Source: Chiloscyllium plagiosum
Taxonomy: Eukaryota
Assembly: GCF_004010195.1 (NCBI RefSeq)
Contig: NC_057719.1
Location: forward strand, 40,771,239 to 40,835,238
Direction: 5' to 3'
DNA: 64,000 nucleotides
A model generated the notes under the pieces. The model was not told the DNA's origin and searched no databases. It worked only from the letters and a program-made list of their open reading frames with translations. The translations under genes and the position numbers were made by a program. The number at the start of each line of letters is the position of its first letter. The stretch's first letter is position 1. Shown piece by piece: positions 2,672-60,175 of this stretch.

Positions 2672-2711
2672 GAGTTCTGAAGAAGTGTCACTGGACCTGA
2701 AACCTTAACTC
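2672..2711 (+). ncRNA. Minimal type I hammerhead ribozyme motif (partly decayed)
   Basis: gagtt-CTGAAGA-a-gtgtc-act-ggacct-GAAA-cc-TT-aactc; 5-bp stem I gagtt/aactc. Confidence 0.6.
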
Positions 2712-2810
2712 TACTTTCGCTCCACAGATGCTGCAATAATTGTTGAGGTTGTCCAGCAATTTTTGTTTTTAGTTTCAGATTTCCAACATCTGCAGCTCTT
2801 TATGTTTTTC
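2672..2810 (+). mobile_element. Penelope-like terminal repeat fragment with hammerhead motif
   Basis: Similar to the 3' ends of the GIY-YIG-bearing copies at 26150-26283 and 39609-39740 (gatgctgc...tccagca...catctgcag). Confidence 0.75.
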
Positions 2811-3399
2811 AGAGAGGACGATGATTGACTCTCAATAGCACAACCAGAAGGCTCACTTTCTCTTACTGTGTTTCCATCCTTCAACCACTTGGAAAACAGT
2901 GCCTGGTGAACAGCTAATTAAAAACATATCCATTCACTGAGAGCTCAAATATATCCACAAACAGTTTACAGATCATTATTTAAATAAGCGTGGGCTGAGG
3001 TTAAACCTAACACTTCAAGAACTCGAAAGATGTTTGAAACTACATCTCCTTAATCTTCCTTTTTGCAATGCATGCTCTCTTCTTTTTAAATACCATACTT
3101 GTGTTTGTGTGTGTCTTTGATGCTCTAGGTGTTAGTTTGGTTTAGCAAGTCTCAAAATTCCTCTGTCTTTCATTCCAGAAAACCTATTATTTCTCTGCAA
3201 TTTTGAATTGTGATATACATCTTAATTGAGGTGGAAGGTAGCTGCCTGCTAAAAATAAATAAAAATCCTTGTTGTGGGCAGCTGAGAGAGTTAAAAAGAG
3301 GGGAATTGGTCCACCCTTCCTCACCTGGTCATTACATCACTCAACACGATGGATTTGGTGGGGAATGATATTAATTATCTCATGGTATATTGCTTCATG

Positions 3400-3900
3400 T
3401 TTCGTTCCACAAAGATTTAGTTTACAGGCACAGCAATTGATGAAGAAGCCAAATGAAATTTGTCATTTATTGCAAGGGGAATGGAACATAAAGGGAAGTT
3501 TTGTTGCAGTTGTGCAGAGTGTAGGTGTGACTACTTTTGGAGTCTCTGTTCTTGAGCAAACAAATAATTACAGTAAAAACAGTTCATAGAAGATTCATGT
3601 GACTGATTTCTGGGGTGCAGGGATTACCTTAACAGGAAAATTTTGATCTTTATCTATTGGAGTTTAAGAAGAATGAAAAATTATTTAATTGAAACATGCA
3701 AGGTCCTGAGGAGGCCCTCCCCTATCAGCTTTCCGTAGAGACCACTCTTACCTTAACAGGAAAATTTTGATCTTTATCTATTGGAGTTTAAGAAGAATGA
3801 AAAATTATTTAATTGAAACATGCAAGGTCCTGAGGAGGTTTGACAGGGCTAAAAGAATATTTCCCCACATAGGAGTGACTGTAAATAGGGGACACAGGGT
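3400..3900 (+). mobile_element. Old CR1 ORF2 3' fragment
   Basis: Resembles the CR1 3' region at 46380-46740 (gcaaatgga...tttattgcaaggggaatgga; ttggagtttaagaagaatga). Confidence 0.6.
3624..3838 (+). repeat. Perfect 91-bp direct duplication (3624-3714, 3748-3838) flanking a 33-bp insert
   Basis: Both copies read ttaccttaacaggaaa...gtcctgaggagg identically. Confidence 0.95.
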
Positions 3901-4392
3901 GTAATTTGTCCAGCCCCAAACAACATTGGCAATAGTGACACTATGTTGGTAAAATATAGTGAGAAAAATAAGATTCTCAATGTCGACAGAAAAAGTCAAT
4001 TTTCCGCCCAAACTTTTAATGACCAGATGAGAATCTTGCCAATGACGAGCAAGAGGCCTATTTTCATGCATTAACATCCCACTATTTATGTGTGGTTTGA
4101 TAATTGATCAGGCAGTAGAGGGAAACCATGTAGCAATGGTTCCTGACCTGAAATTCTGAGTAGGCATCTGGTGGCGCCAACTCACCCGCTTGATTCTCTC
4201 CATCTTGACCAGCATTCACAGACAGTCTAGGTCATGATCCATTGATAGTGATTGCCTGCACTATCTATCCATTGGAATTGTCTTCTGCAAGCACCAGCTT
4301 CACCACATCATCCTGGCAAATTTGGGACTTAACTTTCATGCAGTCCTGTACTTTAGTCTAATAATTGGAGCTCACCAACAATTTTCGTTGCT

Positions 4393-4566
4393 AAAAATCA
4401 CACAACACCAGGTTATAGTCCAGTAGGTTTAATTGGAAGGACACTAGCTTTTGGAGTGGCGCTCCTTCATCAGGTGATTCCAATTAAACCTGTTGGACTA
4501 TAACCTGGTGTTGTGTGATTTTTAACTTTGTACACCCCAGTCCAACACCGGCATCTCCAAATCTTA
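4393..4566. mobile_element. Fold-back PLE-type mini-element, family B
   Basis: Inverted arms aaaaatcacacaacaccaggttatagtcc / ggactataacctggtgttgtgtgattttt. Minus-strand hammerhead at 4442-4476 has GAAA changed to AAAA. Possible TSD cgttgc (4386-4391, 4567-4572). Confidence 0.85.
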
Positions 4567-5294
4567 CGTTGCAGTTTTGTTACCATGCTGTTTTGCATGT
4601 CAGGATGGGCACCCATCTCATGCATCAGAATAAGGAGCATTCTAAGTGCACACTGCTTTCCAACTGCACATTCTTTTGCACCACTTGAATGCTCACAGTA
4701 TCTTCACAATGTCTTGCCCTTTAGCACAGACAGCTAGCCAAGCAGCTTGTCATGATGCACTGCAATGAACTGTCAAGGGGTAGTAGTCAGATCGCTGGTC
4801 CTTTTTACAGTTAATAAAAGTGTCCCGAGTGAGTAAGAAGCACAAGAGGACAGAAAGGGGGGTGAGAGCCATTGAGGAAAGATACTGCATGTGGTATTGT
4901 GTATTGGTAGGACATTAGCCTTGGCAGAAGGTGGGTGCATTGCCAGAGTTGGAGTAAGTGTGAGGAAGAAGACAGAAGATGGTGACGTTTAGCTGTGGAG
5001 TTAGAACATCATTTACCTTTTATAAAGTATTACTGAATTCTCCTCCAGACTGTGAACACTCCATTGGTCAAAGTGACTAATTCAGACCAGGGTGACAAGG
5101 TTTGACATAGTGTACAGCTGGGTTTGGAATATGGTGCCTTTGTGTGAACAGTGAGCATTTTGCCACTGGTGAGCAGAAGATTGTGTGAAGGTCCTACCAT
5201 GGATGCATAGTGTATACGTAATGTGGACAATTCTGTGAGATAATTCACTAGAGATAAACCTCTGTAAAACTCCATGAAATTGACACTTGCTAAA

Positions 5295-5570
5295 ATGCAG
5301 CCCACAGTTTGAAAGTAAGGAGTCTTCCATTTAAAATGAGAACTTTTTTCCCCTCTCAGGCAGTCATTAAGCTACGGAATTCTCACTGGAAAACAATGGA
5401 AGTTGAATATTTTAAGGCTGAGTTTCATAGATTCCCGATTGACAAGAGAGCTTAAAGGGTATATGAGGCAGGTAAATAATTAGGGTTGAGGCCACGATCA
5501 GATCAGACACAATGTTATTAAAAGGTGGAGCAGGTTTGATGGGCAGAATGATTTAATCCTACTCTTAATT
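5295..5570 (+). mobile_element. Old CR1 3' end fragment
   Basis: Similar to the CR1 3' UTR at 46790-47030 (ccatttaa..., gggcagaatg...cctactct). Confidence 0.55.
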
Positions 5571-8500
5571 TGTGTTTTGTATGTGCAAATGTATATATGT
5601 CCCAGCAGTAATCATGTCGCTGACTTCATATTCTTCATATTGAAATATCCTTGCAGCACACAATTTCTGTTGGACAATAGAAGTACTCTGTTTAAACTGA
5701 TAGAGACCTGATTTACTAAATGCTATATTGTTCCTTTCATACAGAAGCATATTGAAATGAAAAAAATGTGCCCAACATAATCATTGTCAATTGTATCTCC
5801 GCAATCTTTCAGCATGTTTGATATTGCTAGGTGGTTGTGAAATCTCATTCTACTTTAAATCTTTATATGGGATGTATTAAATCTACTACCTCTGGAAGCT
5901 GTTATATCTCTGGATTTTTTACTTTGGGAGGTATGTTTACAGGGTCCAGTATCTCAGAGTACCCCTGTAGGTGAGTGCTTATTCCGTCTGATCTCGAGTC
6001 CATTTGTATCTGTCCAGTATCCAGGTGATTTGTATTGAGTCCGGACATGTGCCTCACATTTGGCTAAACTTGACTTTGAAGAGAACTAGAATAAACAAGC
6101 TACTAGATTGGAGTTTAATCTGGAAGCTGCCAAAACAGACATGTTAAATAGTAAATGGATAAGTAAACAGCCGCAATAGCATATTGTTTAACTGATTCTC
6201 CATGCAAGATGAAAAAAAGCATTTGTACTGATTACTGAATTGTAAAGTATACGAGACTGATAAAATGCTTCCACGAAAAGTGTTAGGACAAAGGAATTTA
6301 AATGTGCCTCATTAAATTTTCAACAAACTGTCAATCAAATATATTTACAAATTAAGCCTTGGCAATCTGAGGGAAATCGTTTACATTTACATAGCGAGAG
6401 TGGTTAGGACTTGGAATCCACTGAGTGTGTGGCAGAGGCAGATTTAATTGAGGCTTTCAAATGAAATTGAATAATTATTTCAGGGAAAAAGAAATTGCAG
6501 GCTACAGGGAAAATGCATGGGAATGGGAATAGATATGTTGCCCTTCCAGAGAGTTTACTCAGGCATGACAGGTTGAATGGACACTTCCTGCGTTGTAACA
6601 ACTCTGTGATTACATGATTCTATGAAGTAAAAGTATGAGACCTGGAATTAATCATTTGGTCCTTCCCTCTCTGTCTAATGCTGCTTTTTGATTCATGGAT
6701 CCATACTTGAACCCAATGGTAGATTTTAACTTGAAGCAAATGGATGGAAAATTTGATATTGTGGATGGGCTCTCCATTATTCACCCACCTCTCTAGTAAC
6801 TTCTACAGATCAGAATATCAGTCAAAATGTATGTTGCTGTGTCAATGGTAAAGTTGAATTTTACTCCAAGTATTTCAAATTTTGCATTCAAAACCTACAT
6901 TTTTCAACTAAAAGAGTAAACAAGAGATAAATCAAACATAATTATCATGAGAGGCAAATACTTAAAAATCCATTTCTAATGGCCTGACCATTTTTTTTCC
7001 AATTCATTTTCCTAAAATGACATTTTCCTGTCAAATTTTAGTTTTGTTTCGAATTCGTCTTCTACCTTAATGTGTGGCATTAAAATGCCTCAGTGGCTTA
7101 CTGCAATTCCAAAGGGTGGAAGTTTTGCCAGACTATCATCTCATTCATCTTCAGCCAGTTTCCTGAAAACTGAACTGAGGCTTACATAGGCTTTAGCTGT
7201 GGGAACATGAGGATAAAGTGCGACTTAATAATTCTTAAGCAGGAAGCAACATTTATTGCAGGCTGCACAATATCAAGTGAAGTACTGTTGGGAGCAACCC
7301 ATGCTGAAGGCTATGAACACAGTGCACTGTGCTCTCAAGCAATTAAGGAGAACTCTTATAAATTAATTGCTTATTTTATGTATGTTTTAATTAATAGGTC
7401 TCATTTCTGCCAGGTCTGCAAATTATTAAATTCCTTAATTTTACATTTTCAAAAAATATATCACTGGACACTTGAAAAGACACATAATTAAAAGCTGGGT
7501 ATATTTATAACAAAGTGATGATAACCTAATAGCACATCTGCATTGCTTTAGGACATGAATCTGCAATGTTTTACCAATGCTATACAAATTGCTCTGTTCA
7601 GACTGTTGTTGATAGCACTGTGGTTCAAACAACAGGAAAAATGACTTTGTTTATGTTTCTTTGATTTGTGCTCCACAGATAGTGAGGTACAATATTGATA
7701 CTCTTAATTTTGCTCTGATAGGGAGGGTTAGGGGAAAGAACAAGAATGTGAAAAGGGTCATTATTTTTCAAGCTGTCTGTTTTACTTCTTGAACATGGAT
7801 ATGTTTTATTGCACATACAAGCAAAGGGAACCAAATATATTCTAGAATAATGCATACAAATAGAAACAAGTAACTCAATAAAATACATGATATGTACATT
7901 TGTATTATGTCTCAAGATGTATTTAAGACATTTAAGGTAGTTAGCTACAAAAACATTGTTCATAACAAAATAGGGTTTCAGATGCAACCTCAACAATTAT
8001 TGCCTGGGGATCCATGTTTTAACTAGTCTGCCTTTGATGTCCTTGTTACCAGAAAAAGCTTTTACAGCCTCTCATCACAGCCATTCCCAGTGGTCTGTTT
8101 CCAATCATCAGTTGCGATAGTCCAAGGGGTGTAGATTTGAATGAGGTGAACAACTGGTTTAGCCATCTATTGCCAGATTTGACAGGACCACATGAAGCAC
8201 TCAGAAACTCTCTTCTCTGTCACATTGCTCACTGGTCCAAAATGATCCTCGTTTCTGTTTTCTACATTCTTGATGTTGTTTCTTAAAACTGATTTTGTTG
8301 CCTAATCTTTCACAATCTCTCTTCAGATCAATATTCATCACTTGCTTCACCTCCTTATAGTGCCTTGAGACATTTATTTACTAAAAAAAACTTTACCAGG
8401 TGAAAGGGTCTCTGGTGTGGCTGCACTAATTCTCCTTTATTGTTTTTCAAAAACAAACTTCAAAAGGACATTTATTTTCTATTCTAAAAACATTACACTA

Positions 8501-9410
8501 AAGCAAGTCATTTTTGCTTGTATGGATAATTGGATTAATAACTTGCATAACTTTAAAAAATACTAACGCAAAAGATAGTGTGGTTGATCTCATGGTTAAC
8601 CTAAGATTAAGAGAGATAATCTTTTCTGAGCAAAATTGATAAAGAGAAGGAAAGGTGGATTAAAAGTAACAAAGGTTGAAGAGATGGCATTGGAAATAAA
8701 ATGTGTGGCACATCTCTGATGATGGTCGGAGGGATATCACTGAGGCCAAAGGTCTGGTTGGAGCTCTGAGAGTGGGGAATCTGACACAAAATAGTGGGAA
8801 TACCACTTAATGGTGGTCATAACTGTCAGACAGAATGAAACAATTTGCAGAGATTGTTAACCAAGATCATTAAAACCAGAGGTATACACAGTGGCTTTTG
8901 TTAGCTTCATTCCTCCACTCTACGTTTCTGATTTTATTGCACTGAAGTTCACAGATCATTTGCTCCACAGGCTTACCCAATTGATTAATCTATGGGTTTC
9001 AAATACCCGCTATCTTGCTCCTTACTGTCTGTACCCCCCATGGGCTATCATTTGCATTTTATAGCTTCTTTGCTCCCTCTGCAGAGTACTTCCCCCACAG
9101 CTTTTTACACTTTGTAGTTGTTTTTACAATTTCACGCCATTGGCTTATATTTATTCTTTGTTCTCCACTGATCAGGAATCTTGTTACAGGAGACTGTCTC
9201 CATTTTCAGCATGTTTATACAAAGATTCTGCAATGTGTTAAACCTGAACTATCACAGATCACAGCGATTTATAAATGTGACATTGATTTCAGATCATCAG
9301 GAGCAACTATTGTTTGAATGTTGTAACTTTGAACTAGTAAAACAGACTTGACTATCCCAAATTTGATTCCAGTCTGAAACTTATAAAAGTGCCAGAGAAA
9401 CTCAGCAGGT

Positions 9411-11149: not shown

Positions 11150-11262
11150 TTTGCTTGAATGACTTTATCACTCAATGGTAACTGTCTGAGTTTGAACCAA
11201 GCAGTTTGCAAACCTGCCATCACTTTTAACTCCCACAGAAGGAGTTTTCAACCACCAGATAA

Positions 11263-11564
11263 CACAGTGGCACAGCACCAATGGCCTGGGTTCGATTCTA
11301 GCCTTGGGTGACTGTCTGTGTGGAGTTTGTATGTTCTCCCTTTTTCTGTGTGGGTTTTCTCTGGATGCTCTGGTTTCCTCCCATTGTCCAAAGACATGCA
11401 GGTTACGTGAATTGGCCATGCTAAGTTACCCATGTTGTCCATTGATTTGCAGGCTAGATGGATTAGCCATGGTGAATATGGGATAAAGGGGATAGGATGC
11501 TCTTCAGAGTGTTGGTGCAGACTTGATGGGCCAAACGGCCTCTATCTGCCCTGTAGGATTCTAC
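11263..11564 (+). mobile_element. HE1-type V-SINE
   Basis: B-box-like gggttcgattc; V-domain gtgtggagtttgtatgttctccc...ggtttcctcccattgtccaaagacatgcaggtta; CR1-like tail. Confidence 0.8.
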
Positions 11565-11873
11565 ATTCACCCTATTGCTAAGACTATATACTTCCCTCTA
11601 CATAACCAACTAACTCAGTTTCTGCCTCAGTTTATCTGCTTCTGAAACTCTCCTCCATTGATTTGCAGGCTAGATGGATTAGCCATGGTGAATATGGGAT
11701 AAAGGGGATAGGATGCTCTTCAGAGTGTTGGTGCAGACTTGATGGGCCAAACGGCCTCTATCTGCCCTGTAGGATTCTACATTCACCCTATTGCTAAGAC
11801 TATATACTTCCCTCTACGTAACCAACTAACTCAGTTTCTGCCTCAGTTTATCTGCTTCTGAAACTCTCCTCCA
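11438..11873 (+). repeat. 216-bp tandem duplication, one mismatch, tcca microhomology
   Basis: 11438-11653 vs 11654-11869; they differ at ctacataacc/ctacgtaacc. Confidence 0.95.
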
Positions 11874-17720: not shown

Positions 17721-18050
17721 CCAATTTATGTACATGAATGTTGTTTCGGGCTGCATCGTAATGCAGCCTTTTGTGTAAGTGTTTTACATTTCTCTGTATT
17801 GGCTTTGGTTCACGTTAACATTTTTGTAACGAGACATGTAAAATCGGAGTGGTATTGTACGTTTTGTTTATTTAATAATTAGGTATCATCTGAATTTTCA
17901 TTCTTTAGCAAATTTACATTTAGTGATTGCTTTTACTCATTCTTGAGATGTGTGAGAGTTACTGGCAAGTCAACAATTATTACTCATCCTAATTCACTCA
18001 TTCCTGAACCCTGGCAATCCATGTGGTGATGGTAGATCAACAATGCTAGG

Positions 18051-18183
18051 CAAAAGTGAGGACTGCAGATGCTGGAAATCAGAGTCTAGATCAGAGTGGT
18101 GCTGGAAAAGCACAGCAGGTCAGGCAGCATCCGAGGAGCCAGAAAATCGACGTTTCAGGCAAAAGCCCTTCATCAGGAATGAA
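18051..18183 (-). mobile_element. Solo PLE terminal repeat, family A
   Basis: Closely matches the 3' ends of the GIY-YIG-encoding copies at 26150-26283 and 39609-39740. Confidence 0.85.
18145..18180 (-). ncRNA. Minimal type I hammerhead ribozyme motif with intact core
   Basis: attc-CTGATGA-a-gggc-tttt-gcct-GAAA-cg-TC-gatt; palindromic ACGU stem III, GUC triplet. Confidence 0.75.
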
Positions 18184-19904
18184 GGCTAAGACAAGAGAGA
18201 CTTATGCATTTGTAAGGGACTCTGGTGATGTGGAAATGGGTGGGAAAGTGGCCCTGAGGCCATGATCATCTTGAATATATTATAACAGCTGCTTTTCATG
18301 ACAAAGGTTTCTGCAAACATTTTGTTTAAATATAGAAAGTGACAGGGTCAGGTTAATTTAATGTGTTGCAGGAAAAGCATTTTCTGGTGTTGTACTTAAC
18401 AAGGTATAGTTTAATCCACGTTAGCAACTAGTTCCAGGTTATGTTGATGTGATAGGCACTGTTACAGAGATCTTTGAGGAGGACCAGGTTTCATAATCAT
18501 TGTATTCTTCTTAACCCCTGCAGATATTGATATAAAGATAAAATATAATGAGCCATATGGTCTGTGACTGCTCGAATTTTCTTAGGAGTCTTGGTGAGCT
18601 GCGACAGATGGGGTACTCTTTTGCTGCAGTGATAGAGACAGTGACTGCTTGAATTGGAAGATGGGTGTTGATATGAGCTGGATGCTTGGTTTAGGTGGTG
18701 TTTTAGGAGCTGCACTCATCTAAAGACACTATTCCAACACATTCTTGACTTGTGCCTTAGTGAATTGTGGACAAGTTCTGGGAGTCGGGGGTTGCGGTCC
18801 AGGTATATTAAAGTTATGATTTTGTACAATTGTTTGTTTTCCAAAAGCCAAAATAAACTCCAAAATATAAGATGTTTCAACACAACCAGACCTCCTAAAG
18901 CATTTCACTAAATTACAAATCAGCAAGCAGCTATTCTCCTGCAGTTTACTTCAAATGAATACTAATATAATTCCAAGGATGCAAATGATCATTAAATTAT
19001 TTCACCCGAGCTGCATTTCAGGTTTTTAACAGCTCAGACCTATTTTAATTATGAACAGTGGTGATGAGCCACAGAAAATTGTTTTTTTTTGTTCAATTAA
19101 TCCTGAACTATAAAACATTAAATATGTTTAGAAATTGTAGCTCTGGATCATAAACCAGCTTTGCCCACAGGGTACAAATTTCTAAGAGTGCAAATGATTT
19201 TGATCTCTCTTCTTACCAACTGCATTATTACTTGAATGTAGTTGATATAATCAGATAAAAATCCTGCATGACTTTACACTCTCATAAGTTGCGAAATGTG
19301 AGGACCAGACGAAGCGATTAAGTTGGTTTGTAAATTTTCTAGATAAATGCATTTCTGGATAGCTATCAAATAAATGCAGCAACAAATTTCAAAATCTTAA
19401 CTTTTCGATGTTTTTTTCTTCTAAAAGAAAATAAATTACAGAGCACTGAGTAGAAAATATTGAAAAGATATTGCAGACCTTAGTTTCCTTCACTAGCTGA
19501 GGAGCCTGCACTTAAATTTAAAGGTTCGACTGAAACTCTGGCTGAGATCAATCTTAGCTGAATTGAAAATAAGTGCTGCTGATCCTTGTGATATGGTGTT
19601 ATACCAGCCTGACCTAATATTTCAGGGAGTCAGTATTTTACATTTTAAATTTGAATAAGTCTTTAATTTATTTCTGATTGGCACTGTGCATTGTAACCAT
19701 GAGCTTAGCTGGTAGACTCCATAGCAATATACACTGAACACAGCAGGCAGTTGTTTTCAAAACAATGCAGATGAGTTTTGTCCAATTAGAGCCTCAAAGC
19801 TTATTTTAAATTGGTGTCACCCTAAAGTATCCTACTGGCTATAGCCGGAATTTAAATGTGGATTAAATGAGTTCCTTGAATTTTTTTTCTGTGTCAGTCA
19901 TAGC

Positions 19905-20340: not shown

Positions 20341-22064
20341 TTTCTGGTAACCATGTCAACTTTTATGGCACTCAGTTCCTGAGATTTTCTTCTGGTTTGA
20401 CATACTTGCAGGTTTATTTTCTGTAATATGTTTTAAAATATCATTCTAGATATTGCAGTTCACTTCACAGCGCTCCTAAGCTTTTACTTTGTGAAAAGAA
20501 CATTTTGCATTTCTGCAGTAGTATCTCTTATATCCAAATTTCTTTGAGTCATATTGTCTGTTTTTCTCTCAACAATTGCTGACAGACCTGCTGAGTTTTT
20601 CCAGCAATTGTAATGCTTCCATTCCAGATTTTCAGCATCTGACAATGTTTGCTTTTATCCAAAAACAAATTACTTCTGTAGCAAGCTCACTGTAGGAAAA
20701 AGAGTGGCCAATTTCCATAGGTTCACAGCTTGCAAAGAATAGATGTTCAGGTTGGTGGTGATGGTGGATTTGGGAGGTTAAATTTTAGCTCCAATAACAC
20801 TAGAAGCATTCTGTTCCCTACTGTATTGTTAAATGTGCCCCTATTGGTTCTTTAATGACTTTCAACAGTTGAAAGAGCCCTTTTTAAACATATCACAAAA
20901 CGCTGTAACAAGTAGCACACCCTCTGTACTATATCAAATGTCAGCCTGAATGATATGTTGAAATCCTGGAGAGGCATTTGAACCTATAACTCCCCAACAT
21001 AAGGGGCAAGAGTATTACTGCTGAACCAACAGAATACAATTTTTAGTGAATAAAGTAAATAACTTTTATGAAATCTAATTCTGAAGTTTCCTATTCACTC
21101 CATGGAGTGAATAGGAAAAGCTAAGATGGGGGCTTCTCTAAATCACGGAAGTTGCAGCAAAATTGTTTAGTACATTTAGAGTAGATCGGTAGTTCCATTC
21201 CTGAAGAGTAATAGCCACTTTAATGTGTGCGACTAGACTTAGTGGTTGTTGTTTAATTACGCCAAACTTCTCTGCCCATTTGTACTTTTCACTGATGTGC
21301 AACATTTACTTGATCAATTTACAGCTTCACGGAGGGAGGAAGGAAGTATAAAACTGCATCAGAAGGATAGAAGTTTAGTGGGAATGGGCAACACATTTTG
21401 TAACTCTTGATAGCATTTACAACGGAAGTAAGTTAGTTTTCTTATCATTCTAAAGAATAGTGCAACATTAACATGCTATTACTTCTTGAAAATTAGTTCT
21501 TGTATAATCTCTTTAGAACAGTTTTTGTTCAGAAATTGCACAATTAGATTCAAATAAAATGCAATTTTGTTGCTTGTGCCTCATCATCAGAACCTTCAGA
21601 ACAACTTGTATAAAAGATGACAATTTTCCAATATTATAAAGCACTTACATAGACTATAGTCTAATCAGATGCAATTATATTGTTATATCCTAGTCTTCCA
21701 ACTTCCAAGTGCAAGTAATATTGGAAAAGAATGATTGTCAAGAATAGTGGAAATCCTGTCGTGTACACAAAACTAATTGTGTAAAATGTGATTTCATATA
21801 AAATCGCATTTGTGAAAATCAGATTTTTGATAAAATTGGAATTAAACTCAATGCAACAAATTGGTAGGTTATTTGCTTTATCGAAAAGTAATACATTTTC
21901 AAAATTAGGTCCCTAGTGAATGTTACTATATTTTCATCTCAGGAAAGGTGTGACATTTGGTTCTTCTCTAAAAGTAGGTTGTCTCTGTACATTGCTGTGA
22001 CATTCGTGTAAATTTAAGGTCTTCAGTATAATTTCACAACTTTTAAAAGCTTCAGTGATCAATT

Positions 22065-22690: not shown

Positions 22691-24694
22691 GAATTCCATG
22701 TTTATTTTGTTATTATATTCCTCATTCCTTTTACTTCAGATATTTTTTGATTCTGTGTTTTAGGCAATTCTCAACCTTAGCAATACATGTCTCAGAAAGC
22801 ATTCTTACTTTGAAACTCAGTTATGATTCCTAGTGTGTGCATGAATGACCTGAGAAACTTAATCTGATTATTTCAATTGCTGGTTCTAATCTGTACTCCA
22901 TGATGGCATTGACAGTGACTGGCAAAGTATAGCCACTTACACCAGCAAGAGGCTGGTTCTGGTGCAGGAAGAAGTCTAGATCAGTGACAACTCGCATAGT
23001 GAAGCACAGCATCCTGATACAATGTGCCCTGATCAAATCTATGAAACCAACTCACAATTTACACTTCTAGAGTTTGTATAAGGACTTGGAAGAGCACCAC
23101 CTTTATCTATGGCTGCTTGATATTGCTGCTGAGCCTGTGGCTGTTGTTCTTCTCCCACTGTTCCTCTGACCTAAATAATGAAGTAAAATGCAACACCAAT
23201 CATAACACTGTTTAATCAGGGTGAGGGAGGCAAAGTCAAAAGAATACCAAAAATGTAGAATGTGCCAGCCAGAATGTTCCACAGCCATCTAAATGAAGTC
23301 AGCGGTTAAACTGGCAGCCGGCAGCATTACAGCAAGAGTAGGGAGGTACATTGTTTTAAATCAATTTTAATAGCATCTATTCCCTGTTCCTGCTTGGCAC
23401 CAGAAGTGAAAATTCATGTATTCACTGTCTTGAGACGCTCGTAGAACATTAAATAATTCAATCGTGCAGCATGTTGAAACCAGTAAGGAGTTGTAATGCA
23501 GCCAATTTCATCTGAAATTTGTAATGGACCACCCAGGAAATGCGATGCAAGTTGGAACAAGCTTCAAATGATTAGAAAGAAACCCTCTTATATTCTTAGT
23601 ATTTGGGGAGTTCATAGATGCCGTTTACAGCTAGAGCTATGGATTTCGGATGATTCTATTCAAGGTTGTTAAACCACATTGACTATATTGGTTTTTGACA
23701 GCAACTCACAGTGGACAGTAATTTTAAACATTGTTCAAAGTCTTATTATATGACAATGTGATTTTTATTTAGGACAAGGATCTCAGAACATCAAAATGCA
23801 GGTTATAACCAATTATTGCAAATAGGAATGTTATTACTAAATCTAAAAACTAGCACTCGTGAACCAGCAACTTCAAAATAGCCTAAAAGTTGACAACATG
23901 AACAGTCCTGATATGAGGAAGATTGTTATATAGAATTTTAAAGAAGCTTTTCGAATAACAGATATCCCTTCAATACCTGCTTTACTGGATAGGAGAAGTA
24001 AGTACAGGAAAGTGAATTTAAAGAAAGCTAAGTGTCAATTTTTGGGAATTTTGTGGAGGCTTTCTTTCCATGAGCTCTCGTGGTTTATCTTAATAAGGTG
24101 AGCCCACCTCATTATCTAAGCACCATGCCTCAATGGCACCATTCTAGCAATCACCATTGTCAGCACTTTTGGGATTTCTACCATAACTATGATCATGAAG
24201 CATGTTAATGCATGCAAATGGCTTCTCACTGCTCAATAACGAGATTCTCATCATGCCGTTCAAATCTTGGGTACAAAATTAGACTTTTTCTTCTTGACCA
24301 AGAATCTCATTTTTCCGATCTTGCCATACTTTTCTGTTCAATCCACCATTGCCTATGTCATTGGAAAAGTTCACTCTGTGTACTTCTAGGGAGTTTAACG
24401 GTATGGTTTGCTCTGCACATTATTTTAATTTAAATCATAGAAGATCATCCTATTTAACTTTACATCTGACAATGGAGAAATGGGAACTGCCTAAATCTGC
24501 TCAATCTGTCTCAAACACTGGTGACCTTTAATACCTTGTAAAGAACTATGTTTCATTGATCGAGTTAAGTTAAAAGGTGTCAGCAGTTTATTTCACCATG
24601 TAATATTATAATCAGGCCCAATCCTGTACTCCCCCAATGTCCGTGTATGCCTACATTGGCTATCATGCCTGATTTTCTTTCCTTTCTTGGTTTC

Positions 24695-25380
24695 ATCCTT
24701 GCTAACACTCAACACTGGAGACCCCCAGGGGTGGGTACTCCGCCCCCTACTGTACTCACTGTATACCCATGACTACATCGCTAAATGCCAGACTAATGCC
24801 ATTTACAAGTTCGCTGATGACACCACCATAGTTGATGATGAAACAGACCACAGACTACATGTGGAAGACCTGGAAAAATGGTGCACTGAGAACAACCTAG
24901 CTCTCAATGCCAGCAAAGCCAAGGAACTCATTATTGACTTTCGGCGGGATGTTACTCATGCCCTCCTTCACATTAACAGCACAGAGGTGGAACGAGTGGA
25001 GTGTCAAGCTTCTGGGAGTGGTCATCCATACTAAGCTTTCTTGGACTCTTCATGTGGATGCACTGGTTACAAAGGTCCAACAATGTCTCTTCTTCGTCAG
25101 GCAGCTGAGAAAATTTGGCATGATGGTGAATACTGTTGCCAACTTTTATAGGTGCACCATTGAGAGCATTCTGTCTGCATGTCTCACTACCTGGTATGGC
25201 AACTGTACCATTCAAGATTGGAGACGATTACAGAGTGGTGAACTCGGCCCGGACAATCAGAGAGTCCAATCTCCCATCTATAGAATTCATCTACCAGGCC
25301 CACTGTCAAGGAAAGGCCGCCAGCATTCTCAAAGATTCATTCCACCTGGCAATGCTTTTCTACAACCTCTACCATCGGGG
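24695..25380 (+). mobile_element. Rex1/Babar-clade non-LTR retrotransposon RT fragment
   Basis: LNTGDPQGWVLRPLLYSLYTHD, KFADDTTIV, and FVRQLRKFGM..NFYRCTIESILSACLTTWYGNC; frameshifted. Confidence 0.85.
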
Positions 25381-25757
25381 ATTTCTATAACCTCTACCAA
25401 TGCATTTATTGTATCCATTGCTCCTGATGCGGTCTCCTTTACATTGGGGAGACTGGACGCCTTCTCGCAGAGCGCTTTAGGGGACATCTTCACAACACCC
25501 ACACCAATCAACCCCAACGCCCCATGGCCGAACATTTCAACTCCCCCTCCCATTCTGCCGAGAACATGCAGGTCCTGGACCTCCTCCATCGCCACACCCT
25601 CACCACCCGATGCCTGGAGGAAGAAAGCCTCATCTTCCGCCTCAGAACGTTTCAACCCCCAGGCATCAATGTTGACTTCACTAGTTTCCTCATTTCCCCT
25701 CCCCCCACCTTACCCCAGTTCCAATCTTCCAGCTCAGCACCATCCTCCTGACCTGTC

Positions 25758-26069
25758 NNNNNNNNNNNNNNNNNNNNNNNNNNNNNNNNNNNNNNNNNNN
25801 NNNNNNNNNNNNNNNNNNNNNNNNNNNNNNNNNNNNNNNNNNNNNNNNNNNNNNNNNNNNNNNNNNNNNNNNNNNNNNNNNNNNNNNNNNNNNNNNNNNN
25901 NNNNNNNNNNNNNNNNNNNNNNNNNNNNNNNNNNNNNNNNNNNNNNNNNNNNNNNNNNNNNNNNNNNNNNNNNNNNNNNNNNNNNNNNNNNNNNNNNNNN
26001 NNNNNNNNNNNNNNNNNNNNNNNNNNNNNNNNNNNNNNNNNNNNNNNNNNNNNNNNNNNNNNNNNNNNN
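25758..26069. other. Assembly gap (312 N)
   Basis: Run of N. Confidence 1.
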
Positions 26070-26150
26070 CACCTATTGCACTCTTAGCTACCTTCTCCCC
26101 AGCCCCACACCCCTCCCATTTATCTCTCCACCCCGGAGGCTCCCAACCTC

Positions 26151-26186
26151 ATTCCTGATGAAGGGCTCCTGCCTGAAATGTCGATT
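26151..26186 (+). ncRNA. Minimal type I hammerhead motif in PLE terminus
   Basis: attc-CTGATGA-a-gggc-tcct-gcct-GAAA-tg-TC-gatt. Confidence 0.65.
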
Positions 26187-26284
26187 TTCCTGCCCCATAG
26201 ATGCTGCCTGAACTACTGTGCTTTACCAGCAACACTCTAATCTTGACTCTGATCTCTAGCATCTGCGGTCCTCACTTTCACTCC

Positions 26285-39608: not shown

Positions 39609-40421
39609 AGGAGAAAGTGAGGACTGCAGATGCTGGAGATCAGAGCTGAAAATGTGTTGCTGGAAAAGTGCAACAGGCCAGGCAGCATCCAAGGAACAGG
39701 AGAATCGACGTTTCGGACATAAGCCCTTTTTCAGGAATGGGGAAAGTGTGTCCAGCAGGCTAAGATAAAAGGTAGGGAGGAGGGACTTGGGGGAGGGGCA
39801 TTGGAAATGCGATAGGTCTTCCTCCAACCGTCGTGTTGCTATGGTCTGGTGATGGAGGAGTCCAAGGACCTGCATGTCCTTGGCGGAGTGGGAGGGGGAG
39901 TTGAAGTGTTGAGCTACGGAGTGGTTGGGTTGGTTGGTCCGGGTGTCCCAGAGGTGTTCTCTGAAACGTTCCGCAAGTAGGTGGCCTGTCTCCCCAATCG
40001 GGTGCAGCGGATGCAATAAATGATGTGTGTGGAGTTGCAGGTGAATTTGTGGCGGATATGGAAGGATCCCTTGGGGCCTTGGAGGGAAGTAAGGGGAGAG
40101 GTGTGGGCGCAAGTTTTGCATTTCTTCGGTTGCAGGGGAAGGTGCCGGGTGTGGAGGTTGGGTTGGTGGGGGGTGTCGACCTGATGAGGGAGTCACGGAG
40201 GGAGTGGTCTTTTCGGAACGCTGCTAGGGGAGGGGAGGGAAATGTGTCCCTGGTGGTGGGATCCGTTTGGAGATGGCGGAAATGATGTCGGATGATACGT
40301 TGTATATGGAGGTTGGTAGGGTGGTAGGTGAGGACCAGTGGGGTTCTGTCCTGGTGGCGGTTGGAGGGGCAGGGCTAAAGGGCGGAGGAGCGAGAAGTGG
40401 AGGAGATGCGGTGGAGGTGAA
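39609..40421 (-). mobile_element. Penelope-like element 3' part (linker, Cys motif, GIY-YIG, terminal repeat), internally deleted
   Basis: QDRTPLVLTYHP, IGETGHLLAERFREHL, AQHFNSPSHS. Hammerhead at 39702-39738 has the core changed to CTGAAAA. Confidence 0.9.
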
Positions 40422-45891: not shown

Positions 45892-45984
45892 TTATGCCTT
45901 ATCAAGTATATTTTGTAAATAAAATAAGTATCACACATAAAACTACCAATAAATAAGAGCCCATGTTGCTGTGGCATTGATATT

Positions 45985-48540: not shown

Positions 48541-48706
48541 CATGATGTGGAGGAGCTGGTGTTGGACTGGGGTGGATCTTTTGCTATAAATTCTGTGTCT
48601 TATGATCCTGCCCCACTAGTCACCTGATGAAGGAGCAGCACTCTGAAAACTAGTACTTCCAAATAAATCTGTTGAACTATAACCTGGTGTTGTGTGATTT
48701 TTAACT
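48541..48706. mobile_element. Family B PLE-type mini-element: inverted ~36-nt tail plus forward terminal repeat, 9-bp TSD
   Basis: TSD ttggataaa at 48532-48540 and 48707-48715; decayed hammerhead at 48621-48655. Confidence 0.85.
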
Positions 48707-48741
48707 TTGGATAAATATGGTAGCATTATTAGTCAAGTGTA

Positions 48742-48945
48742 CATGATTTGGAGATACCGGTGTTGGACTGGGTGTACAAAGTTAAAAATCACACAACACC
48801 AGGTTATAGTCCAACAGGTTTAATTGGAAGCACACTAGCTTTCGGAGCGACACTCCTTCACCTGATGAAGGAGCGTTGCTCTGAAAGCTAGTGTGCTTCC
48901 AATTAAACCTGTTGGACTATAACCTGGTGTTGTATGATTTTTAAC
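48742..48945. mobile_element. Family B fold-back mini-element, 13-bp TSD
   Basis: About 80-bp near-perfect inverted arms; TSD ttagtcaagtgta at 48729-48741 and 48946-48958. Confidence 0.92.
48859..48893 (+). ncRNA. Minimal type I hammerhead ribozyme motif with intact core
   Basis: cac-CTGATGA-a-ggagc-gtt-gctct-GAAA-gc-TA-gtg; palindromic AGCU stem III, CUA triplet. Confidence 0.8.
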
Positions 48946-49530
48946 TTAGTCAAGTGTAATAGACTAGATTATAGCTATTTAAAAAGTGATCCTCAGTTGT
49001 TAGTTCTGAAATTTCATCACAGGAGAGGGTTATTTAGTTGACATCAGAATATTGACAGTAACCAATCTTCATTATATGAATTGCAATAAGATGGGATCAA
49101 AATGATTGCAATATGTTAAAGATACGATGTTAACCATACAGTATGTTCTTTAATTTTGTACTTAAAATATAGGCTGTGGGTTTACAACTGCGTAGGTATT
49201 TTTCCAATTCTTTCCCACTTTGTACTGAATATTTTTGTTATTATATTGCTCTTTCAGTGATAAGCCACATCCATGAATGACTGAGAGCTATATCCTTGAC
49301 CAAATCTTTCCTTAGCAAAAGTCACCACACTTACAGCATATTCACTTAAAAATATACTGTTAAAGTCTAATATCATTACTAATATTATGTAAGCCATTGA
49401 AGCAGAATTATATAATTCTTTAACTCCTTAATATAATTCCTTAATTCTTTCCCTGTTTGTAATCAGATTTTTTGTTATATTGCTACTTTTTTGAACAATA
49501 ACAGCTTATATTTACGTGACCATTTCTTTC

Positions 49531-49801: not shown

Positions 49802-52003
49802 CTTATGGAACATTTAATACAACAATGTGCTCACATTTTGATTGGGAAGTGGAGCTTTATTTTGCTGCTATTCTCACATCATTCCCTCCAGAATCAGTGA
49901 CTCATGCTGGGCATAGTCTTATATCATTTGAACACTCCAGTAGCCATTCCTCATGCTAGAGCTGACCGTAAAGAGGTAGATTTCCAATCTGCGGTCATGA
50001 GCCTGAAGCATACATAATTTTTGGGAATTGACCCCTCGCCACATCTGCATTGCTCATACAATGTGATTTTTCAATATAAAAATATCTCCAAATTGTGGCA
50101 TTGTTGAGCTTGAACACCCAATTACTGGCACTGGGCATTAACAAGGAAGTGGAACCTGCCTGGAAGCATGATCACTAAAGATACATGACAGCCAGGATGA
50201 GGTCTGCCAGTGCCTTGCAGAAAGGAGGAAGCAGTGCATCAAAGTGTCAGTAGCATAAATTGGCATGTGAGTGGTCAGATGGTCCAATGTGAGGTGACAC
50301 ACATGAACCAATGCAAGATCCTGCAGGTACTGAGATATGCTATCCCATAAAAATAATTTTAGTATCTCTCCACATTAAGCCTGAAAGCTCTGCGCTGACA
50401 TGCAGGAGACTGGATTCAGTGATTTGCATATTGAAAACTGTCTTCTTATCCTGTCCCAATAACACACTCCACAAAGAGCTTAAAAAGGCCATTAATTGGA
50501 GACAAGCAGGTGTCTGACTTGCTTCACTGCACTTTGAGAATCTGTGCACACCCTGTCAGCAATTGACAGTCTCACCCATGTGAGTTTGAGCATGCTATTG
50601 ATCTTGTCAGAGTGTCATTGCATCAGCATCCCACATGTTTTCCAGCATGACATTCTGGCTATTGATCAGGAACAGGAATCTTCCCTGATATCCTCCCTAA
50701 CCTGGAGTCATAGATGTGCATGGCTACACCCCAATGACTTCAGTGACTCAAATCAACTAACTCTGTCGATATGCAGAATTGAACCTAGGTCAAATAACAA
50801 CTGAAGATGTCCTTATTGTGGTAATTATAACAAAACATAGCTACTCTTACATAATGCTGCTTCAAATGCTTATAAATTAGTAATGTTACTGGACTTTGTA
50901 ATATATTTTAACTCTAGCCATTGTGACCTTTGCTAAGGGTAGATTTGGTCAAGGGTATGGTACCCAGTATTAACACTGCTTACTGTTACCTTTAATGCCC
51001 AGTGAATGGTTTAAATATTCTCAGCTATACTCATGATCATCTGTGGGCAATAATTGTCTTGGGGCATAATAAGTGAGCCATAGTTTGGGCAGCTTCCATG
51101 TGAAGCATTAGTTTCTATTGCAGGACTTAATCTCCTTCTAAACCATATACCAGCATACACAGGGGGCTAACTCTTGAATGTTTTTGTACTGATAACTGCA
51201 ATATTTCTGCACTATGGAGAAGTAATGATAGCAAAGGGCTTTGGGACCCGAAAAGCTGAGCATCCATGAAACAAGTTTAAAGGGATTGTATTGCTAAGAG
51301 AAAAAAATAAATAATCTAACTGTAAGGAAGAGGCATTTGTCTGTGAATCATATCCTGAGTGGGAACATTTTCACACTTCAGAAGGTAGCTATGAACTGAG
51401 ACTATGACTGATGGGTTTCCGATTCATAGACATTGCCACAACAGTCTAGGTCAGAACCACTTAAAATTTGGTCACTGTGCCCTGGCACAGCAGGAAACCC
51501 AAGTGTATTCTTAAAACAAGCTCTTTGTTAATGGATCTGGCTGATTATTCATTGTTAAGGGCAAGGGCTATAGCGTTGCAATTTATCAGTTCACATTAAA
51601 ATGTTCAGGATGCTGCAAAGCTTATTTTTCCTCTGATGAGATTTTGCAACAATAGAGTTCCTTTGCGATGTATTAATGTTTCAGTAATACAGCTCAGTAA
51701 ACCAGACCATCTCCTGAGCATTAAAAGCATAGGCACATTCAGCTCTTTGATGTTTGTTTAATTACGAGTCTATGTAGTTAGGTAGTTATCAAGTGCACTA
51801 CCAACCTCCTGGTTTGTTTTTGATAATTGTTTTCATGCTGCGTTTTTGCATCTGGAAATCCGTATGATTTGTAAATCAATTTTACTCCGCAAGCTTAACC
51901 TGCTGTATTGAAGGGATTTAATAACATCAAAATGGTAACTGCTGAGCTAATAAGGAGCATTTGAAATTAATCCAAGTTGGCTAATGATTTGCTTTCTTTT
52001 CAG

Positions 52004-52513
52004 GATCCAGGATTTTCAGCTTTTATTTTTGACAAGCTTCAAGTACCTGACTCTTCAAAACGAGGTCAAAACGAAGGTGAGAGCCGATGTGAGATTTGTG
52101 CAACACACCTGAATCAGCTGCGAAAGGAAGCCATCCAGATGGTGCACGCACTCGGCCAGTCAAGTCAGGAAATACCTGAGCTATCACAAAGTTCCATTGC
52201 AGTGAGCGGTGTTTCATCAAGAATTGCTTCTCAAAATATGGTCACCCTTTCATCACAAAGAGACTGGCCCCTGGTCACAGTACAAGGAAACAGACAACCT
52301 GGAAAATCAGGAAATGCAATCTCGAGCACAGAAAGAAGGAAGGGCCTTGGCTGGCCTCAGGCAGGCAGTCTTTCGAAGTCTAGTGTTCAAGTGACTGTTG
52401 GTTCCACTGGTCTTAGCAATGCCCTGAACTCAGTCACCATTCAGGCTCAGCAGTACCTTGAGGGTATGTGGAGTATCTCTAGAGTGAACAACTTTCTTCC
52501 AAATGCCTATTTG
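52004..52513 (+). CDS. KIF26A: Internal coding exon (170 codons, phase 0-0) of kinesin-11 family member KIF26A-like, N-terminal region
   Basis: DPGFSAFIFDKLQVPD..RCEICATHLNQLRKEA..KGLGW..SVQVTV..SVTIQAQQYLEGMWSISRVNNFLP recalls KIF26A more than KIF26B. Branch-like ctaat at 51981, acceptor tttcttttcag ending 52003, donor gtgagt at 52514. Confidence 0.88.
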
Positions 52514-57300: not shown

Positions 57301-57638
57301 CAACCTTTTGCATTCAAAAGACCAGAGTGAAAGTTGTCCAGAGTTGAAACAGTTTGCCTGAGCTGTTGTAAAGATTTTAGAGTCAAAGAAAAGGACCTTT
57401 CATCTTTAATTGACAGGCTTTAAGGTTTCTGGGATGCATCTAGTTCCAATGTGACAAATTTGGAGGAATTAAAATATTAAAGAATACACTTATTGGATGA
57501 TAAAGCATTTTCGAGCAATTAAAGTATATGTTGGTGATCTTCCTGCTGTACGTAAGGCATATCTTACTGGAGCAAATCTCAAAGAGGAGATACATTGGTT
57601 GCAACATTTGGAATATACAAGGATAAAAAATTAAATAA

Positions 57639-58401
57639 TTGGAAAACAAGTCAGGATAAGACTTTTATTCTTAATGGTAAGGATCTGGGGAGAGTTGCTG
57701 AAAAAAGAGACCTTAGAATGCAGGTTCACTGATCCTTGAAAGTGGAGTTGCAGATAGATAGGATAGTGAAGAAAGCATTTGGTATGCTTGCTTTTATTGG
57801 TCAGTCCATTAGGGTAGGGGTCGGGAGGTCATGTTCCGGTTGTACAGAACATTGGTTAGGCCACTTTTGGAATACTGTGTGCAATTCTAGACTTCCTGCT
57901 ATAGGAAGGATGTTATGAAACTTGAAAGGATTCAGAAAAGATTTACTAGGATGTTACCAGGGTTGGAGGGTTTGAGCTATAGGGAGACACTGAATAGACT
58001 GAGTCTATTTTCCCTGGAACGTTGGAGGCTGAGGGGTGACCTTACAGAAGTTTATAAAATCATGATGGGGTAAATAGACAAGGTCATTTCCCTGGGGTGA
58101 TAGAGTCCAAAACTAGAGGGCATAGGTTTAAGGTGGGAGAGAAAGATTTAAAATGGACCTAAGCAGCAACGTTTTCATGGAGAGGGTGGTGTGTGAATGG
58201 AATGAGGTGCCAGAGGAAATGGTGGAGGCTGATATAATTATGACATTTAAAAGACATTTGGATGGGTATATGATTGGGAGGGTTTATAGGGATATGGGCC
58301 AAATGCTGGAAAATAGGGCTAGATTGATTTAGGCAATCAGGTTGTCATGGATAAATTGGACCAAAGAATTTGTGCCTGTGCAGTACAGCTCCATGACTCT
58401 A
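57639..58401 (+). mobile_element. CR1 3' portion inserted in the Gypsy pol
   Basis: QIDRIVKKAFGMLAFIGQSI; shared 3' UTR ending ccatgactcta. Confidence 0.9.
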
Positions 58402-60001
58402 AAAGGAGATATATTTGTCGCCTTTGTCTTGCAGTGTAGACACCTTCCATTTTGATAAGGTCTGGTCTAATGCCATTTGACAAGTTGACTGACCTGAAGA
58501 AATTAATTTGGCTCATGTTGATTTGGCATTTTTTGCTGTTGAAAATTAAGCCTCCTGTTCTTATTGCTGCAATGTGCAAATGGAAGTTTTGTGTCACCGT
58601 CATGTTTAGTTTTCTCAGGAATTGCAATGTTAAATGTGATACAGAGACAATGTGGTAGTTATTTTATGATACAATCAATATATCATTGGAATATATCATG
58701 GCTGACAGATAATCCAAATGGTATTGAGAAAACGATATCTACCAAATGGGTTCCCAAGTTGTCACTTCCTATCACTCTGGGAAGAAGATACCGACCAATA
58801 TTAGTTCTTCACAACCAATTCAGAGAAATGCTTGGCACATGTGAACTTAGAAAAATACTCTTTTAGGGAAAGAATCTTGTGTGGACATTTTAGTGCTATA
58901 TTCAGTTGCTTTGAATCTAGATATACGTGTAGAAATGCTACCTTTTTGCCAAACCTAAGTAATGAATTGCATCAGTCTAATGCTGAACGTTGCAAATAAT
59001 GTTGATTTGTATCTTGGAAACCAATTCTAATTTGACCTTATCATCAATGTGAATATTATTCTTAGGAGGAGGATTATGATGGGTTGGACATCAACTTTCA
59101 GGTGTAACGTTGCATCAACTTTTAAAATTATCAAGAGAATCAAGCTGCACTGATAGAGGTTCATCAGATCAATGTTGTGGTCAGGAATTGGTAGCTTTGG
59201 AATTGCGGTATCTGTTAACTTGTGGATTGTAATTAATTGTAGATCAGTGCAAACTGTTAGACCAATGATTGATGGTTTTACTGTATCATTGATATAGAAT
59301 GTTTCAAGTGTCCATCCTGAGGAGCCACATTGGCATTGAAGGATGAAAGCAATGCAATGGGATGTCAGACCCATTGTAAACGGGTAATCTATTGTCTGTG
59401 GAGTGCACCACATTGTGTCAGCTTCCTGATGATATCTCAAGTCTGTGGTGTATCAGGTTGACCAATTGTATTTTTTGACTGGGATCTGCAAGCTCTAAAA
59501 TTGTAGTTATCTCTTTGCTTGATAAACCTTAGCAATGTTTTGAACAATTTTATCTAGCATTTTAAGCTGTATTTCATTTGGAAGTCACTTTTCTGAATCT
59601 GAGCTGTCCTCAGCTCTTGTAAATTTTTTTTCAAAATTGGACACAATTATTCCTGTCTTTTAACAAAGACTGTATTCACAGTCGTTCCTTCCATGTACTT
59701 ACCATGCCTCCATGCATTTGTTGCCTGTGGTCTCGGTTGCTAGACGTGACCTTTAGCTCTGAACTCAGACCTATGATAGGTGACTGTTAGGGAAGTAAGT
59801 TTTCACAATTGCCATTCCTGTTTTCTGTCCTTCAGTCTTTGGTACAATTGTGCTGTCATTAGGTTCTGCCATCATGATGTGGTATGATTAGCCCGTATAG
59901 CTTAAATCACAGAGATTCAGGTGCTTACTGAGACTGATATCTGAAAGTTTATTAACAACTCACTGTGTACACAAATATGACTGTCACACTTACATATACA
60001 G

Positions 60002-60175
60002 GAGGAAGTGAGGACTGCAGATGCTGGAGATCAGAGTCGAGGATGTGCTGGAAAAGCACAGCAGGTCAGGCAGCATCCGAGGAGAATCTGATGAAAGACT
60101 TATTCCCGAAACATTGATTCTGCTGCTCCTTGGATGCTGCCTGACCTACTGTGCTTTTCCACCACCACACTCTGG
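60002..60175. mobile_element. Family A fold-back PLE mini-element, 16-bp TSD (15/16 identical)
   Basis: Inverted arms ggaaaagcacagcaggtcaggcagcatcc / ggatgctgcctgacctactgtgcttttcc; TSD acacttacat[a/g]tacag at 59986-60001 and 60176-60191; decayed hammerhead at 60088-60120. Confidence 0.9.

Follow-up and report, generated by a model that had tools for sequence, protein, structure and literature searches.

Decayed minimal hammerhead motifs in the terminal repeats of Penelope-like and probably Penelope-like element families in a 64-kb stretch of the shark Chiloscyllium plagiosum

Metazoan Penelope-like elements (PLEs) are known to carry minimal hammerhead ribozymes (min-HHRs), whose consensus comprises CUGANGAH, G10.1...C11.1, GAAAN, a palindrome and NUH (Cervera and de la Peña 2014, PMC4209133). 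Four traits recur in this class, i.e. covarying consensus families, a base between positions 9 and 10.1, a G10.1-C11.1 pair and a palindromic 15.2-16.2 segment, and the ribozymes were reported not to cleave as monomers and to cleave at low levels as dimers in vitro (PMC4209133); a review also cites Lunse et al. for dimer cleavage (PMC6765202). We have analysed nine motifs of this kind in a window of 64,000 nt of the Chiloscyllium plagiosum genome (NC_057719.1, positions 40,771,239-40,835,238 of the forward strand; all coordinates below are window positions), which consists of AT-rich vertebrate DNA with debris of long interspersed nuclear elements (LINEs). Our interpretation, to which we assign a probability of about 0.85, is that these motifs are mutated minimal type I hammerheads located in the 3' terminal repeats of three element families, one of them Penelope-like and the other two likely so, and that nearly every one of the copies is predicted to have lost activity.

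Three further systems provide a frame for this locus. PLE insertions are accompanied by inverted truncated partners, 30-40-bp tails and target-site duplications, and a CX2-5CxxC linker has been described in two clades, Neptune and Nematis (Craig et al. 2021, PMC8557442; Arkhipova et al. 2013, PMC3846280). The best experimental model is the Poseidon element PAc of Anolis carolinensis, which shares with our motifs a PLE-terminal hammerhead; this ribozyme cleaves solely upon addition of the PLE protein, its mutation left insertion in vitro unchanged and no read ends were reported at its cut site, and priming on both target strands and an internal start of reverse transcription, the latter explaining the tail, were also described (Frangieh et al. 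2024, PMC11167929). PAc, however, is an intact element of another clade, whereas the window copies are decayed. PLE-derived type I hammerheads are likewise found in non-LTR retrozymes, reported as tandem units in one chondrichthyan, and cleavage was detected in one of nine Xenopus dimers (bioRxiv 10.64898/2026.07.22.740005). Penelope is present in the whale shark (PMC8455134), cartilaginous fishes are missing from the 40 species shown in Fig. S3 of PMC4209133, and our literature search, whose coverage left out most subscription papers, found no shark-specific description of such hammerheads.

A preliminary description of this DNA, made by reading its letters, had located nine minimal hammerheads by the low end of each motif or by its C3. 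All nine were recovered, with C3 at 2677, 26155, 48624, 48862 and 60088 on the plus strand and at 4473, 18176, 36132 and 39734 on the minus strand, and the core CUGANGA...GAAA-NN-UH is intact in seven of them, the exceptions being 4473 (G12>A) and 39734 (G8>A). A strict descriptor demanding a perfect core, at least three of four helix II pairs and at least two helix I pairs matched six times, compared with a mean of 0.08 (maximum 1) in 25 dinucleotide shuffles. When a single mismatch in the core was tolerated, eight matches were obtained against a shuffle mean of 1.36, but this relaxed version separates poorly, because a single shuffle yielded up to seven. The 60088 motif fails both descriptors and was retained for its 82% homology to the 18176 copy; a perfect-core match at 31667 on the minus strand was taken as fortuitous, since it has no helix I. 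Neither a 6-bp helix I with a looped helix III nor an Rfam hammerhead match, as in canonical type I ribozymes, was found; loop III is absent, and the 11 Rfam matches of the window at E<=10 included no hammerhead, the sensitivity of Rfam to published min-HHRs not having been checked, while those of miRNA type are attributable to fold-back hairpins. That the whole set arose as chance matches to a short pattern, as the seven hits in one shuffle and the silence of Rfam might suggest, is practically negligible given the excess under the strict descriptor, and it is already refuted by the family structure, all nine motifs occupying the same position within three repeat families.

These families, where at least two had been proposed, were delimited by self-comparison and profile searches as A (18176, 26155, 39734 and 60088), B (4473, 48624 and 48862) and C (2677 and 36132), A and C being related to each other (64% over 126 nt of the tail). 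The profiles retrieved no additional core-bearing copy in the window, which besides the nine motifs contains a partial core at 36152 on the minus strand and a tail-only piece at 20562-20641. In family A, the linear copy at 18053-18185 (minus strand; hammerhead 18145-18180) keeps an intact core, a GUC triplet with a predicted cut at 18149/18148 and an ACGU palindrome, its 10.1-11.1 pair is G·U and its helix I consists of 2 bp, a U·U and 1 bp. Two other members are pseudo-long terminal repeat (pLTR) ends, one at 26147-26279 (plus; hammerhead 26151-26186) with an intact core and the changes C11.1>U and C15.2>U, and the other at 39613-39742 (minus; hammerhead 39703-39738), which carries the G8>A substitution. 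The fourth is a fold-back unit at 60000-60175 (plus) with a 10-bp target-site duplication, in which the junction lies at C3/helix I and the hammerhead remnant (60088-60119) has lost helix II and has a broken palindrome.

Family B comprises a head-to-head (fold-back) unit at 4392-4563 (minus; hammerhead 4442-4477), in which the inverted arm, the only part to carry the tail extension, begins at helix I and lengthens it into a long stem; a unit at 48544-48707 (plus; hammerhead 48621-48655) that has a target-site duplication of 9 bp and a short piece of inverted tail, and whose hammerhead shows a G·U at 10.1, a palindrome disrupted to AACU and only 2 bp in helix I; and a fold-back unit at 48745-48947 (plus; hammerhead 48859-48893) with a 13-bp duplication, an intact core, a CUA triplet and a G·U at 10.1. 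The last is a 175-nt inverted repeat (93%) whose tail is again confined to the arm and whose hammerhead is sequestered in the hairpin. The latter two units lie 37 nt apart (48544-48947) with separate target-site duplications, which suggests two insertions in one AT-rich spot. Family C is represented by a linear copy at 2672-2711 (plus; C3 2677, H17 2706) with an intact core, a 5-bp helix I, a G·U at 10.1-11.1, a U·C at 10.2, a broken palindrome (ACCU) and a pLTR tail of some 90 nt reaching ~2800, and by a fold-back unit at 36084-36261 (minus; hammerhead 36098-36135) with a 12-bp target-site duplication, a G·U at 10.1, a U·U at 10.4, a broken palindrome, an inverted arm at 36149-36261 and the duplicated partial core at 36152. 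Here the opening ten bases of the core region recur 20 nt upstream, at the fold-back junction (36132-36152, minus strand), as if the polymerase had restarted at the hammerhead.

The anatomy of the motifs agrees with the published class, as summarised by the consensus of Fig. S3 in PMC4209133, in all four recurring traits, and most of what the preliminary description had read from the stems was borne out. The pairings gagtt/aactc and cac/gtg in helix I and gggc/gccy and ggagc/gctcy in helix II are as it described them. The ACGU or AGCU palindromes it reported are intact in four of the nine copies, the remaining five being one substitution away, and the extra A after A9 occurs in all nine; such an A is also known from a viroid hammerhead (PMC1636495), and it is a defining feature of the published min-HHRs rather than an oddity. 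The 10.1-11.1 pair is G-C in two copies, G·U in six and A·C in one. Helix I, which spans 3-7 bp in the published class and 2 bp in some of its variants, measures 3 bp in two of the three family B copies and 3-5 bp in family C, and in family A it has two contiguous pairs and one more after the U·U. Our motifs share with the metazoan PLE ribozymes a short helix I, the prevalence of solo truncated copies, the coexistence of several consensus families in one genome and opposite-strand pairs, and the cnidarian and crustacean motifs listed in PMC4209133 have nearly the same layout. They differ from them in a short helix II (4-5 bp) and in the interrupted helix I of family A, a 2-bp helix I being reported for D. 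virilis. The local density is very high (nine motifs in 64 kb, about one per 7 kb), compared with the roughly 4,000-9,000 per genome obtained with a strict descriptor in coelacanth and Xenopus (PMC4209133).

The covariation that had been claimed for the stems was confirmed between families, six of nine stem columns changing on both sides (the first three pairs of helix I, the third and fourth of helix II and the middle of the palindrome). In a structure-based alignment of the nine copies 63 of 81 cells are paired, against 52.0 upon permutation; three of 20000 permutations reach that value, a figure that is no probability because the copies are related. Exchanging strands within families left pairing at 0.71-0.77, and five of the six cross-family exchanges lowered it to 0.21-0.54.

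Two family A motifs lie close to remnants of PLE open reading frames (ORFs), and the proteins matched by these remnants carry a PLE-type reverse transcriptase (RT), a CX4CXXC linker and an endonuclease (EN) domain of GIY-YIG type. Of the two attachments to GIY-YIG remnants originally proposed, that of 39734 is contiguous: 82 nt separate the motif from a minus-strand remnant in three frames (39816-40416) that comprises the RT-EN linker followed by the GIY-YIG domain (39816-40126), with 77-89% identity to two proteins, P0001 and P0002, in most segments and 57% and 72% in two. Its CX4CXXC motif is split by a frameshift (~40090-40140) and is complete in P0001. The second attachment is interrupted by an assembly gap of 312 N (25758-26069) between a plus-strand GIY-YIG remnant with one stop codon (25404-25712) and the 26155 motif, so that this link is likely, without continuous sequence. 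The plus-strand remnant also aligns to P0001/P0002, and its best matches, taken over 25428-25748, are Chiloscyllium punctatum proteins with 68-70% identity (six matches among 135 candidates). Both reference proteins reach the Pfam GIY-YIG model just under the cut-off, and P0001 has an RT match that is likewise below threshold. An RT-bearing LINE remnant (24612-25400, plus strand; RVT_1 and ALKBH8_N matches) abuts the plus-strand GIY-YIG remnant and probably represents a nested insertion.

Because of this linkage to RT-EN linker and GIY-YIG sequences, family A would be Neptune-like, with a C-terminal GIY-YIG domain, an upstream CX2-5CxxC linker between RT and EN and 5' truncation in common with that clade (PMC8557442, PMC3846280). 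The linker is shared by the Nematis clade too, and, the window holding only fragments without the RT core and no ORF for B and C, the likeness is one of domains and not of RT phylogeny. The insertion units also resemble those of Neptune-clade elements in the adjacent inverted copy, the one-sided 30-40-bp tail and target-site duplications of ~9-13 bp. Inverted partners accompany five of the nine units (4473, 36132, 48624, 48862 and 60088), duplications of 9-13 bp flank four, and the arms of family B carry a one-sided tail that is absent from the forward copy. This PLE-type insertion anatomy makes it likely that families B and C, too, derive from PLEs.

The fate of family A could be followed in public sequencing runs aligned at 80% likeness to 17980-18279, i.e. 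to the 18176 copy. Two large contig runs of two organisms, of unrecorded library type and taken as DNA, contributed 93,885 and 87,248 contig pieces, counts that are not copy numbers; family A is clearly very abundant. Of two RNA runs, one yielded 3948 reads, in both orientations, and the other none, an outcome that is no test. The runs that the search listed as containing the family included none recorded as RNA, which says nothing on expression. Among the best 40 of 88 variants, those falling in the hammerhead affect N7, two sites of loop II and each of the six CpG positions. Once CpG positions and the private changes of the 18176 copy were dropped, the same set contained none of 23 core or paired positions but 18 of the 85 in the tail (Fisher p=0.009, with lower depth at the hammerhead end) and three of seven free hammerhead positions. 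The majority core is intact and the majority base at 11.1 is C (66-76%), so that the U found there in window copies is ascribed to CpG decay. G12>A occurs at 10-16%, which does not set it apart from the remaining CpG G>A changes (8-21%). This spectrum points to a constrained master element whose inserted copies decay neutrally.

The genomic copies themselves are predicted to be poor ribozymes. They had been put forward as self-cleaving RNAs, a claim that finds no support for these copies: none is flawless, 4473 and 39734 carry core changes expected to be lethal, core mutations being known to abolish or reduce hammerhead cleavage (PMC2837043), and folding predicts most to be inactive. The motifs beginning at 18145 and 48859 (C3 18176 and 48862), singled out earlier as best preserved, are indeed the best by sequence, but both have the C11.1>U change and fold poorly, with predicted helix II probabilities of 0.07 and, inside its 175-nt fold-back, 0.00. 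In the seven core-intact copies this value does not exceed 0.41, and as monomers seven of the nine motif regions are predicted to adopt no hammerhead fold. Folding z-scores were unfavourable for the six linear motif regions, and the low folding scores at 4473, 48862 and 60088 are due to their inverted arms. Joint formation of helices I and II (P=0.71 and 1.00) is predicted at 4473 alone, owing to the inverted arm that prolongs its helix I, and this copy has lost G12. A tandem dimer of 48624 and 48862, the sole close same-strand pair (238 nt apart), was considered and rejected at +71 kcal/mol, a cost imposed by the zipping of 48862 into its hairpin.

By analogy with the described systems, the following history may be proposed. 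In active master elements the element RNA would be cut after the GUC, CUA or GUU triplet; cleavage by the ancestral motif can be presumed, since its homologues cleave. The reaction would take place in a dimer, the 4-nt palindromes of two motifs pairing as the missing helix III with exchange of the helix I strands, and would probably be helped by the protein of the element, as in the anole PLE. Target-primed reverse transcription starting from the 3' tail would then leave short 5'-truncated and head-to-head copies in which the motif is a passenger, and after insertion these would decay neutrally, mainly at three CpGs (C11.1-G12, C15.2-G16.2 and C17-G1.1).

Several observations weigh against our interpretation. 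The two contiguous helix I pairs of family A fall below the three required by the published descriptor. With three families, two of them related, the covariation amounts to about two independent comparisons; one cross-family exchange (the 5' strand of C with the 3' strand of A) pairs at 0.93, above the within-family values; and among the best 40 of 88 variants no two-sided change was seen within family A, depth dropping toward the hammerhead end. No ORF accompanies family B or C within the window. The 3948 RNA reads show no pile of ends at the cut site, a weak test in a poly(A) single-cell library. Finally, folding energies are uncertain for such small motifs, and protein binding could rescue a copy with a G·U pair. 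Nonetheless, judged at the sequence level, the motifs are real, were correctly recognised and belong to the min-HHR class already described, and the copies have the appearance of relics.

The alternative that fares best, though we consider it unlikely, is that the short units are not truncated full-length PLEs but an independently propagating non-autonomous RNA, similar to short interspersed nuclear elements or to retrozymes, that starts at helix I. It draws on the clustering of junctions there: if the partial core at 36152 is counted, six of the ten core-bearing starts in the window are no more than ~5 nt away from C3. In the two DNA runs, moreover, 511 and 552 contig pieces end at 18180, the first helix I base, against heterogeneous flanks. 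These ends are also explained by a PLE transcript start or by splicing just before the motif. Furthermore, 439-470 contig pieces run on into family upstream sequence at 18182, two family A copies extend back into ORF remnants, and the units are dispersed monomers or head-to-head pairs, unlike the non-LTR retrozymes, which require tandem arrays; a TRF search of the window returned two arrays, neither containing a hammerhead.

Rather doubtful is also the proposal that 18176, 26155 and 48862 still cleave when transcribed, by dimerising in trans with sister copies or with the help of protein, and could thereby cut host pre-mRNA such as the KIF26 transcript. Seven of the nine copies keep all invariant core letters, family A sequence is found in RNA reads of both orientations, and the anole hammerhead depends on its protein for cleavage (PMC11167929). 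G12>A, however, is as common in the RNA reads (16%) as other CpG changes, giving no sign of selection on the copies, the five plus- and four minus-strand motifs show no bias relative to the KIF26 exon of the window, helix II is poorly formed even in the core-intact copies, and eight of the nine genomic Xenopus dimers did not cleave (bioRxiv 10.64898/2026.07.22.740005).

Just as questionable is the idea that the motif is conserved for a role other than cleavage, as a promoter, splice or protein-binding element, or that catalysis was lost before the families expanded. The poor dimer cleavage of min-HHRs in vitro (PMC4209133) and the indifference of PAc insertion to hammerhead mutations, together with the lack of read ends at its cut site (PMC11167929), are in keeping with it, as is the very weak helix I of family A. 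In two family A copies the core is preceded by a pyrimidine-rich stretch that ends in AG and resembles a 3' splice site (18186-18200 and 39760-39790, minus strand). The intron of Drosophila Penelope is reported to end at helix I. All catalytic positions and the dimer palindrome are, on the contrary, kept in three families whose stems change in pairs, the pattern expected from selection on a ribozyme fold.

Returning to truncated PLEs as the source of the units, the junctions deserve attention of their own. Four long fold-backs (4473, 36152, 48862 and 60088) join at or inside the motif. In the public runs 10 of the 15 joints listed, out of 113, change strand; in nine of these ten one side falls within 18176-18185, and in eight the opposite side falls within 18132-18147. 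The family likeness of the 18176 copy stops near 18182-18185, so that these counts cover junctions up to that point, those farther upstream being invisible; private changes at 18140, 18141 and 18144 clip the arms at 18139, and for this reason a match of the arm ends to the cut site (18148) is neither shown nor excluded. The accessible text of PMC8557442 and PMC3846280 does not report junction clustering at the hammerhead helix I. The clustering can be read in three ways: the template RNA begins, or is spliced, immediately ahead of the motif, the joining step selects the microhomology of helix I, or one arm derives from cleaved RNA. It is tempting to speculate, albeit as an improbable model, that helix I is a hot spot at which reverse transcription ends and PLE arms are joined, one cDNA stopping at the 5' strand of helix I and the other at or just past the cleavage site, the two being united through helix I complementarity.

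The generality of the architecture was assessed by scanning metagenome contigs with a pattern in which the core and the helix II base were fixed, which covered 11 of 64 parts and gave at least 117 loci (90 unique motifs from 118 matches). Positions 1-4 of helix I, left unconstrained, pair at 0.54, 0.67, 0.50 and 0.43 versus 0.26-0.32 upon permutation, counts that are inflated by related copies; position 5 shows no excess, and the palindromic centre is present in 74 of the 90 unique motifs. Fourteen loci among 115 matches had an inverted arm; in 11 of the 14 the symmetry centre, derived by hand, lies at most 17 nt from C3, a figure skewed by the 200-nt flanks and by the requirement that the core be intact. 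No copy of families A-C was found in the parts scanned, similarity being at most 38 nt long and confined to the motif, and a viral-contig scan gave six loci, none belonging to these families. By its sequences, this set indicates that the hammerhead architecture is general; it says nothing on the working state of the window copies. Four loci on non-shark contigs (L027, L032, L078 and L091) are opposite-strand head-to-head pairs of complete minimal hammerheads, and at two others (L101 and L102, ~201-228) the motif has an 11-bp helix I, far longer than in the other 88 unique motifs.

Concerning the genomic surroundings, a single host exon of the KIF26 family lies at approximately 51995-52513 on the plus strand and corresponds to about residues 98-271 of a shark homologue. 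Its best matches are two shark KIF26 proteins (88-89%); the closest proteins are named KIF26B in shark databases, and most other matches are KIF26A. Four homologues used as queries disclosed no further KIF26 exon in the window, and for this reason the window is likely to be mostly intron and the motifs to reside in KIF26 introns. Two identical 91-nt direct repeats around ~33 nt occupy 3624-3838; a short segment spanning both is similar to the linker region of PLEs (tblastn E=0.009), and the repeats may reflect a recent duplication or an assembly artefact. Two tandem copies of 216 nt with 99% identity at 11438-11873 are possibly an assembly duplication.

Our findings extend a known motif class to shark-type PLE families and change no mechanism. 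A genome this rich in copies allows a statistical test of junctions against the cut site, which bears on the in vivo role of PLE hammerheads (PMC8557442, PMC11167929). Of the three readings of the junction clustering, only an arm derived from cleaved RNA would be both new and important. Should the hot-spot model be true, tens of thousands of junctions would preserve, as fossils, the folding or cleavage of hammerheads in vivo, so far unseen by RNA-seq; in the fold-backs the weak helix I would be clamped within a long stem and the junction folded in advance, as predicted at 4473, and shark introns would harbour a large pool of latent ribozymes.

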